Part shown: piece after piece, positions 50,337-50,597 of the stretch
Position numbering within the stretch: position 1 is the stretch's first letter
How the letters are laid out: the number at the start of each line of letters is the position of its first letter
Source of the DNA: an uncultured SAR86 cluster bacterium
Lineage (GTDB): Bacteria > Pseudomonadota > Gammaproteobacteria > Magnimaribacterales > D2472
Direction of reading: 5' to 3'
NCBI GenBank assembly: GCA_902559345.1
Contig: CACEHH010000003.1
Location: forward strand, 1,316 to 65,315
Length of the DNA: 64,000 nt
The notes under the pieces: model-generated
The model's database searches: none
The model's input: the letters and a program-made list of their open reading frames with translations, nothing else
What the model was told of the DNA's origin: nothing
Made by a program: the position numbers and the translations under genes

Positions 50337-50597
50337 ATGTCATACTCGCACTTCAAAATGACACATAAAAATAAACAATACAGAATTGAAAAAGGTCTTT
50401 TGCTATTTACACAGCCTAAGTCTCCCTATTTTTATGGAAAAATAAGGATTAATAAAAGATATATGACTAAGTCTTTTGCTCCGATTTCAGACTTTGAAGA
50501 AGCTAAAAATAGGTTATACGAATGGCGGGAAGAGATTGCCCAGAGAGATATAAATTTTAAAAATACTAATAAAGATATATCCAACAGAAATGAGTAT
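50337..50597 (+). other. 87-codon stop-free in-frame leader/extension upstream of the canonical gltD start; sequence resembles an integrase arm-type (AP2-like) DNA-binding domain
   Basis: [71 protein letters not shown]. It has a strand-strand-strand-helix pattern like tyrosine-integrase N-termini (...YYxYRxxxGKxxxxSLGTxDxxEAxxxxxxW...). There is no stop before the gltD Met at 50598. Confidence 0.4.

Follow-up and report, generated by a model that had tools for sequence, protein, structure and literature searches.

An N-terminal domain of the SAR86 glutamate synthase small subunit, related to integrase N-termini, and a candidate operator beside its gene

In a 64,000-nucleotide stretch of DNA from an uncultured SAR86 cluster bacterium (GenBank assembly GCA_902559345.1, contig CACEHH010000003.1, positions 1,316 to 65,315; the whole stretch is called the window hereafter), the reading frame of gltD, the gene for the small subunit of glutamate synthase, stays open well upstream of where the enzyme is expected to begin, which raises the question of what this additional sequence is. 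The original prediction, made from the DNA letters alone, described 87 stop-free codons resembling the N-terminal, arm-type DNA-binding domain of tyrosine integrases and offered three readings: a relic of an integrase 5′ end, a genuine DNA-binding domain fused to GltD, or a small regulator that had lost its stop codon. Only the fusion survives, given the presence of the extension in 63 species and a ratio of nonsynonymous to synonymous substitution rates (dN/dS) of 0.09; the DNA-binding nature of the domain is predicted from sequence. On the comparative evidence, the extension is a translated, selected N-terminal domain of GltD in SAR86, and we put at roughly 0.55 the probability that an integrase arm-binding domain has been domesticated here and lets GltD act as an autoregulating enzyme at the divergent gltB-gltD promoter region. 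SAR86 GltD carries about 85 extra N-terminal residues, formed by a compact domain of about 60 residues and a variable linker of about 25 (window coordinates; dN/dS values are medians and amino-acid identities are means over 414 genome pairs):

50337..50339, plus strand: ATG taken as the start in the original prediction, within the second copy of an upstream repeat and in frame with the domain in some species only.
50358..50360, plus strand: conserved start codon of the extended GltD, present in 64/64 sequences.
50358..50537, plus strand: N-terminal domain of about 60 aa (MTHKNKQY...YEWREEI; 60 residues compared), dN/dS 0.09, identity 74%, marked also by AlphaFold2 and by homology to integrase N-termini.
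50538..50618, plus strand: variable linker, which holds the non-conserved ATG 50598, dN/dS 0.51, identity 34%, variable in length.
50619..52016, plus strand: canonical GltD core (Fer4_20 and Pyr_redox_2), stop codon included, marked by TIGR01318 from residue 90 and by Pfam, dN/dS 0.06, identity 84%.

The open reading frame (ORF) at 50337..52016 on the plus strand encodes 559 aa and its translation agrees with the peptide given in the original prediction, which bears out the 87-codon stop-free extension; the frame of gltD is open upstream as far as 50280. An open run of 87 codons has a chance probability of 9.8e-4 under the window composition (GC fraction 0.318) and of 2.5e-4 under the local composition, and occurred in 61 of 200,000 mononucleotide shuffles (about 3e-4), against which the earlier estimate of about 1 in 1000 was fair (computed, 3e-4 to 1e-3). 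The remaining five frames of the segment contain 2-14 stops, and the open extension of gltD is real rather than a chance run. Read from 50358, the protein belongs to the glutamate synthase small subunit family: it scores 731.5 bits against TIGR01318 (the GltD family), above the curated cutoff of 483, with model positions 1-465 of 467 aligned to residues 90-551. As this alignment begins at residue 90, corresponding to window position 50625, the canonical enzyme starts at about 50625 and everything upstream is extra. Pfam recognises PF14691 (Fer4_20, 1.6e-39) and PF07992 (Pyr_redox_2, 2e-24) in the core; the N-terminal domain runs into GltD, and by Pfam and TIGR01318 the polypeptide lacks a recombinase domain.

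A database search with the 87-aa extension returned 108 proteins at 50-98% identity, all short and many running in frame into GltD; their shortness is due to contig ends or to frame-shifted reads, beyond which GltD sequence follows. Genomes were scanned one per species, counting the extension where residues 1-131 matched as one in-frame segment. In all 63 retrieved SAR86 species genomes it is in frame with gltD and free of stops before the GltD core, so the orthologue comparison proposed in the original prediction came out in favour of the fusion. The frame continues to the normal gltD end in 59 full-length copies, the other loci being at contig ends (L033, L059), carrying a premature stop (L040) or containing ambiguous bases (L003, L014).

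Where translation begins can be read from the same alignment. An invariant KNKQY is preceded in each of the 64 sequences by an ATG, or in six of them a GTG, at a distance of 6-12 nt from its N codon; in the window this codon is at position 50358. Translation of GltD starts there, so that the extension comprises 80 codons and not the 87 counted from ATG 50337. The latter is probably part of a DNA site rather than the true start: because the frame of the repeat motif relative to the ORF varies, this ATG is in frame in some species only, and the motif is translated differently between genomes (e.g. KVSYFVIH). Met 50598, from which a GltD of canonical length had been read, fares no better. The full-length core is indeed there, but the methionine is absent in relatives: in 58 of them the column holds GTA, ACT, GTT, TTA, ACA, ATT, CTA, ATC, ACC, ATA or GCT, none a start-capable codon (0/58), and an in-frame ATG within 12 codons of the core occurs in one of 59 sequences, that of the window. 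With no internal start in relatives, GltD without the extension cannot be made in these organisms. For annotation, the gltD start in SAR86 lies about 240 nt upstream of the canonical position, and many metagenome copies have been split by gene callers into a "hypothetical protein" and a truncated GltD.

The substitution rates tell the same story at the level of the protein. Synonymous sites are saturated while amino acids are retained, purifying selection on the domain is as strong as on the enzyme core, as shown by the dN/dS comparison that the original prediction had proposed, and the linker between them evolves fast and differs in length by up to six residues among relatives. Such a pairing of a constrained domain with a fast-evolving linker is what marks a functional domain that folds on its own and is flexibly tethered.

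Several copies depart from the intact frame. Five metagenome proteins (P0004, P0005, P0014, P0048, P0050) have a frame shift at the A-run encoding DPxKK, just inside the GltD core, and L040 (3001-4140) has its premature stop at codon 397 of gltD; both are probably sequencing errors, though the shifts recur at one spot. In a divergent gltD lineage (L200:980-2243), the domain ORF ends in two stops within the linker and the core lies in the +1 frame, with an upstream motif, ATGACATACTATGTCATACT, one change from the usual form; here the domain may be a truly separate protein, or the break an assembly error.

What kind of domain this is was answered by sequence searches. A profile of the GltD extension, compared with 1.84 billion proteins, matched P0121 (392 aa, E 1.4e-7), which in turn matches PHROG_1 'integrase' over residues 18-377 (E 2.9e-15) and belongs to a family of marine proteins of about 386 aa, many with precomputed PF00589. 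Its gene directly follows sequence matching the 3′ end of the tRNA-Ile of loci L191 and L194. By BLASTP, the domain of the window aligns over 55 residues with the PF00589-bearing integrase P0179, at 36% identity and 64% similarity (E 8e-12). The resemblance to integrase N-termini noted earlier thus reflects real homology, and we regard the domain as homologous, by these matches, to the N-termini of an abundant marine tyrosine integrase family, some members of which lie beside tRNA-Ile. The curated arm-binding models (Arm-DNA-bind families, DUF4102, Integrase_DNA and DUF6538, and those of PHROGs) do not recognise the 87-aa extension, with no Pfam or PHROGs match to it up to E<=10 and DUF6538 appearing below threshold (E 0.0065-0.2) in paralogues of the PetA type only (see below); the domain is an unclassified branch. 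AlphaFold2 models it with a predicted local distance difference test score (pLDDT) of 90.7 as four strands (6-11, 14-19, 22-31, 34-39) and a helix (46-63); the best fold match in the PDB is an apicomplexan AP2 DNA-binding domain, and phage HNH or intron endonucleases are also among the best matches, all weak (E 0.06-0.8). The sequence evidence for an integrase origin is stronger than the fold evidence. Among PDB sequences, neither the domain profile (A2) nor integrase P0121 brought up anything relevant, and viral contigs scanned for the domain, P0121 and the TATGAACAC repeat contained no relatives.

If the domain descends from a DNA-binding module, does its gene adjoin a site to bind? The region between gltB and gltD contains a candidate:

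50324..50346, no strand: tandem direct repeat AAAGTGTCATACT-AT-GTCATACT, a predicted, arm-type-like operator, invariant in SAR86.
50270..50357, no strand: gltB-gltD intergenic region, 88 bp by sequence, with both predicted promoters and the repeat.
45839..50269, minus strand: gltB, the large subunit, an ORF of 1476 aa divergent from gltD.

The tandem repeat claimed at 50328..50346, across ATG 50337, is present as TGTCATACT-A-TGTCATACT; with repeat 1 at 50327..50336 and repeat 2 at 50337..50346, its period is 10 bp. In all 64 SAR86 sequences the form GTCATAC-N3-GTCATAC is exact (AAAGTGTCATACT-nn-GTCATAC), while the 2-nt spacer and the flanks vary, and it lies 4-17 nt before the gltD start codon and, where the gltB start could be placed, about 31-68 bp from the latter. 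The window contains a single copy of the tandem motif. On the minus strand, hexamers resembling a gltB promoter either overlap the repeat or follow closely on its downstream side. An inverted repeat of the window, GTGTCAT...ATGACAC, was also considered and dropped, not being conserved in relatives.

Related repeats stand in front of other genes that encode the domain, on integrases, on stand-alone N-domain ORFs and on PetA:

L065, integrase: TATACACACA twice with a 10-bp period, inverted GTGTGTATA, then aaac-ATG.
L191-193, stand-alone N-domain ORF: TATGAACACA twice, GTGTTCATA, then taa-ATG.
L194 and L196, integrase: TATGAACAC twice, inverted (G/A)TGTTCATA, then ATG.
L195, N-domain ORF of 85 aa with no recombinase part after it: TATACACAG three times, inverted CTGTGTAT, then tgt-ATG.
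Six petA loci, PetA fusion: TTTGAACAC-N8-10-TGTTCAAA abutting the ATG, with a second copy after rpsI.
Candidate sites of the PetA-type and integrase-type domains: TTTGAACAC, TATGAACAC and TATACACAC.

Five independent loci of the integrase or stand-alone type thus have two to three direct copies of TATGAACAC or TATACACA(C/G) and an inverted copy 2-4 nt before the ATG, and immediately before the start of every class of domain-encoding gene lie repeats whose unit is related, TATG(A)ACAC / GTGT(T)CATA. Since the architecture is kept while the unit sequence changes, we mark these repeats as putative protein-binding sites. Taken from the minus strand, the gltD unit is TATGACAC and differs by one edit from that of the integrases, TATGAACAC; a match this close has p of about 0.009 in a random 23-mer and 0.05 when the 88-nt intergenic region is shuffled. 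We infer that the domain family recognises TATG(A)ACAC-like sites and that the gltD tandem repeat is the cognate site of the GltD domain.

Beyond these loci, the 19-mer motif was found in metagenomes at 21 gltD sites and in about 100 other matches, most of which are due to chance at this database size, to conserved coding sequence or to 10-nt microsatellites; several are explained by (GTCATACTGT)n-like arrays in unrelated contigs (L092:400-520, L111:1000-1150, L133:100-230, L144:3900-4050, L152:100-260). Marine podovirus-like contigs, with a terminase small subunit, an ArdC-like gene and weak similarity to pelagiphage and roseophage genes, contain three to four GTGTCATAC units clustered in intergenic DNA (L085:2650-2760, L146:2730-2830, L166:1020-1095, L174:1220-1280, L103:540-625); the sequence stretch examined around them contains no domain homologue, and no link to GltD could be established.

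GltD is not the sole enzyme component to carry such a domain. Downstream of rplM-rpsI in marine gammaproteobacteria, a paralogous domain (MSKNKQGKKHIHILDGMSLYTRDKSPFYWGYLN...) is in frame with the twin-arginine translocation (TAT) signal and Rieske domain of PetA (L064:1000-1800, L066:6001-6800, L067:6001-6821, L188:1308-2107, L189:643-1442, L190:1501-1803); one of these loci belongs to assembly GCA_902526535.1, which, to judge from its accession series, is probably a single-cell genome of SAR86. At the petA ATG, TTTGAACAC..TGTTCAAA forms a palindrome. The PetA-type domain shares 56% identity with the N-terminus of integrase P0228 (E 5e-22), which points to a separate, younger capture.

Not all of these loci are intact. 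In three petA loci (L067:6270-6310, L188:1560-1600, L189:895-935) the Rieske TAT signal (TRRKAL) is out of frame with the domain ORF, with no start codon before the twin arginines; two of them, L188 and L189, share the break although they come from two samples, and it may be an assembly error, a recoding or a real separation. Beside tRNA-Ile(GAT), a stand-alone N-domain ORF of 80 aa without a recombinase part has the same neighbours in three sources (L191:664-1084, L192:1-481, L193:1-438), and the integrase at L194:274-1638 is in two pieces, an N-domain ORF of 86 aa and the remaining 277 aa. In four proteins (P0107, P0051, P0115, P0150) the partner of a GltD- or PetA-type N-domain is something unrelated: ribosomal protein S14, the C-terminus of an enolase-like protein, a TatD-like hydrolase or FKBP. 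All four derive from short contigs and are probably assembly chimeras.

The arrangement of the neighbouring genes bears on how the fusion may have arisen. Between 44271 and 53050 the order is aroK, aroB, gltB (inverted), gltD and hemE, with the stop codons of aroB and gltB overlapping convergently (45839..45842) and gltD overlapping hemE (52013..52016); gltB and gltD are divergent in every locus where the gltB start was found. In Pseudomonas the order is aroK-aroB-gltB-gltD-hemE, all co-directional, relative to which only gltB is inverted here. Because of this difference, it is plausible that the fusion originated when a rearrangement turned gltB around and supplied gltD with a new 5′ end, as the earlier proposal had it; the extension left behind is, however, not a relic.

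An integrase-derived domain beside conserved DNA repeats suggests that GltD probably controls its own genes. As we picture it, the domain would be a domesticated arm-type DNA-binding module that binds the two invariant GTCATAC repeats, the tethered N-domains sitting on two sites arranged head to tail, which would overlap the promoter or transcription start of gltD and lie just upstream of, or at, the gltB -35 element. GltD, free or within the GltB/GltD complex, could thereby occupy the shared promoter region and feed back on the transcription of gltD, and probably of gltB, following an enzyme-repressor logic as in PutA. The cassette, consisting of the sites and the domain-coding 5′ end, was probably captured from an integrase gene, and a second, younger capture would have given the Rieske protein PetA its counterpart. 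The fusion, its selection, its homology to integrase N-domains and the invariance and position of the repeat are observations; that GltD binds DNA, which site it reads and what this does to transcription are predictions. Rather more tentatively, and at somewhat less than even odds, SAR86 may have repeatedly captured such portable cassettes of arm-type sites and domain 5′ end from island integrases and set them before core metabolic genes, gltD and later petA, yielding enzymes that regulate themselves within a single polypeptide.

The alternative we take most seriously accepts the domain as real and selected but gives it no DNA to bind in GltD or PetA: it would serve complex assembly or docking, RNA binding or localisation, and the repeat would be the gltD core promoter or the site of another regulator, e.g. 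a response regulator of the OmpR/PhoB type. We consider this possible but doubtful. Several observations speak for it and weigh against a DNA-binding role: in both cases the carrier is a small iron-sulfur subunit of a redox complex with several subunits; none of the fold searches produced a significant match to a DNA-binding domain, and the modelled AP2-type likeness is only suggestive; TGTCATACT fits an extended -10 element and, on the other strand, ATGACA fits a gltB -35; and copies of the motif turn up in phage-like contigs whose examined stretch lacks the domain. Against it, the relatives of the domain sit at integrase N-termini, the position that the arm-site-binding domains occupy in the lambda and Tn916 integrases, the fast-evolving flexible linker is as expected of an independent module, and repeats of related units lie directly upstream of every class of domain-encoding gene. 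TGTCAT is a Pho-box half-site in Escherichia coli, but the Pho box has a period of 11 bp and the SAR86 repeat one of 10 bp, and units related to the latter flank integrase genes.

The two readings without a fused functional domain are much less probable. It is very unlikely that we are looking at a separate small regulator gene whose stop was lost in this genome, or at the conservation of a DNA or RNA element rather than of a protein: many database entries are short stand-alone ORFs of 50-150 aa, and the L200 domain ORF stops inside the linker with the core in another frame, but the short entries run into GltD once fragments and frame shifts are accounted for, the fusion is universal in the species genomes and clade-wide, and relatives have no internal start from which a separate GltD could be translated. 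A nucleic-acid element is likewise contradicted by saturated synonymous sites next to retained amino acids; Rfam models on 49500..51500 gave chance-level matches only, none better than E 1.6, and folding the motif together with the 5′ coding region as a consensus RNA gave -0.14 kcal/mol with no covarying pairs. Most improbable of all is that the extension is a functionless, decaying integrase 5′ relic of the gltB-inverting rearrangement that happens to be open here. The homology to integrase N-termini, the truncated and split integrase genes of the same family (L191-194) and the inversion of gltB relative to the Pseudomonas order would all suit such a relic; a frame open across 63 species, the dN/dS of 0.09 beside 0.51 in the neighbouring linker and the lack of an alternative start in relatives contradict it.

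Returning to GltD as an autoregulating enzyme, we found no description of an arm-binding-type domain on GltD or PetA in the literature searched on SAR86 glutamate synthase, DUF6538 and trigger enzymes. Enzyme-repressor fusions and integrase arm-binding domains are each already known; a GltD/PetA fusion conserved across a major ocean clade, together with its putative sites, is absent from curated family libraries. If true, autoregulation would explain how nitrogen assimilation genes can be controlled in SAR86, which are abundant marine bacteria, would extend the enzyme-repressor class by a new DNA-binding fold and would clearly exemplify, in two instances, the joint domestication of a DNA-binding module and its sites from a mobile element. 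Repeated capture, if confirmed, would be an undescribed route by which parts of mobile elements become housekeeping regulators in a streamlined genome.

Compared with canonical gammaproteobacterial GltD, as represented by TIGR01318, the SAR86 protein matches end to end in its core (residues 90-551), whereas residues 1-89 have no counterpart in the model and gltB is divergent rather than upstream in one operon. With the arm-type, AP2-like domains of the lambda and Tn916 integrases, the SAR86 domain shares its modelled build as a small β-sheet-plus-helix module, homologues at the N-termini of tyrosine integrases beside tRNA genes, and genes that adjoin short repeated sites, direct and inverted; unlike them, it is attached to a metabolic enzyme rather than a recombinase, is unmatched by the Pfam and PHROGs arm models and has an AP2 fold match that is not significant. 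The wider group of AP2-like domains, in HNH homing endonucleases and in plant and apicomplexan AP2 factors, supplies its best fold matches, though these are weak (E 0.06-0.8) and sequence similarity is absent. The closest functional parallels are PutA and the trigger enzymes BirA and NadR, in which the DNA-binding module is a ribbon-helix-helix domain (PutA) or a winged helix-turn-helix domain (BirA, NadR). The SAR86 module differs in being apparently integrase-derived, with predicted binding and no effector-dependent switch known. As in these proteins, enzyme and putative N-terminal DNA-binding module would be united in one polypeptide and, as in PutA, the candidate sites fall between two divergently transcribed genes.
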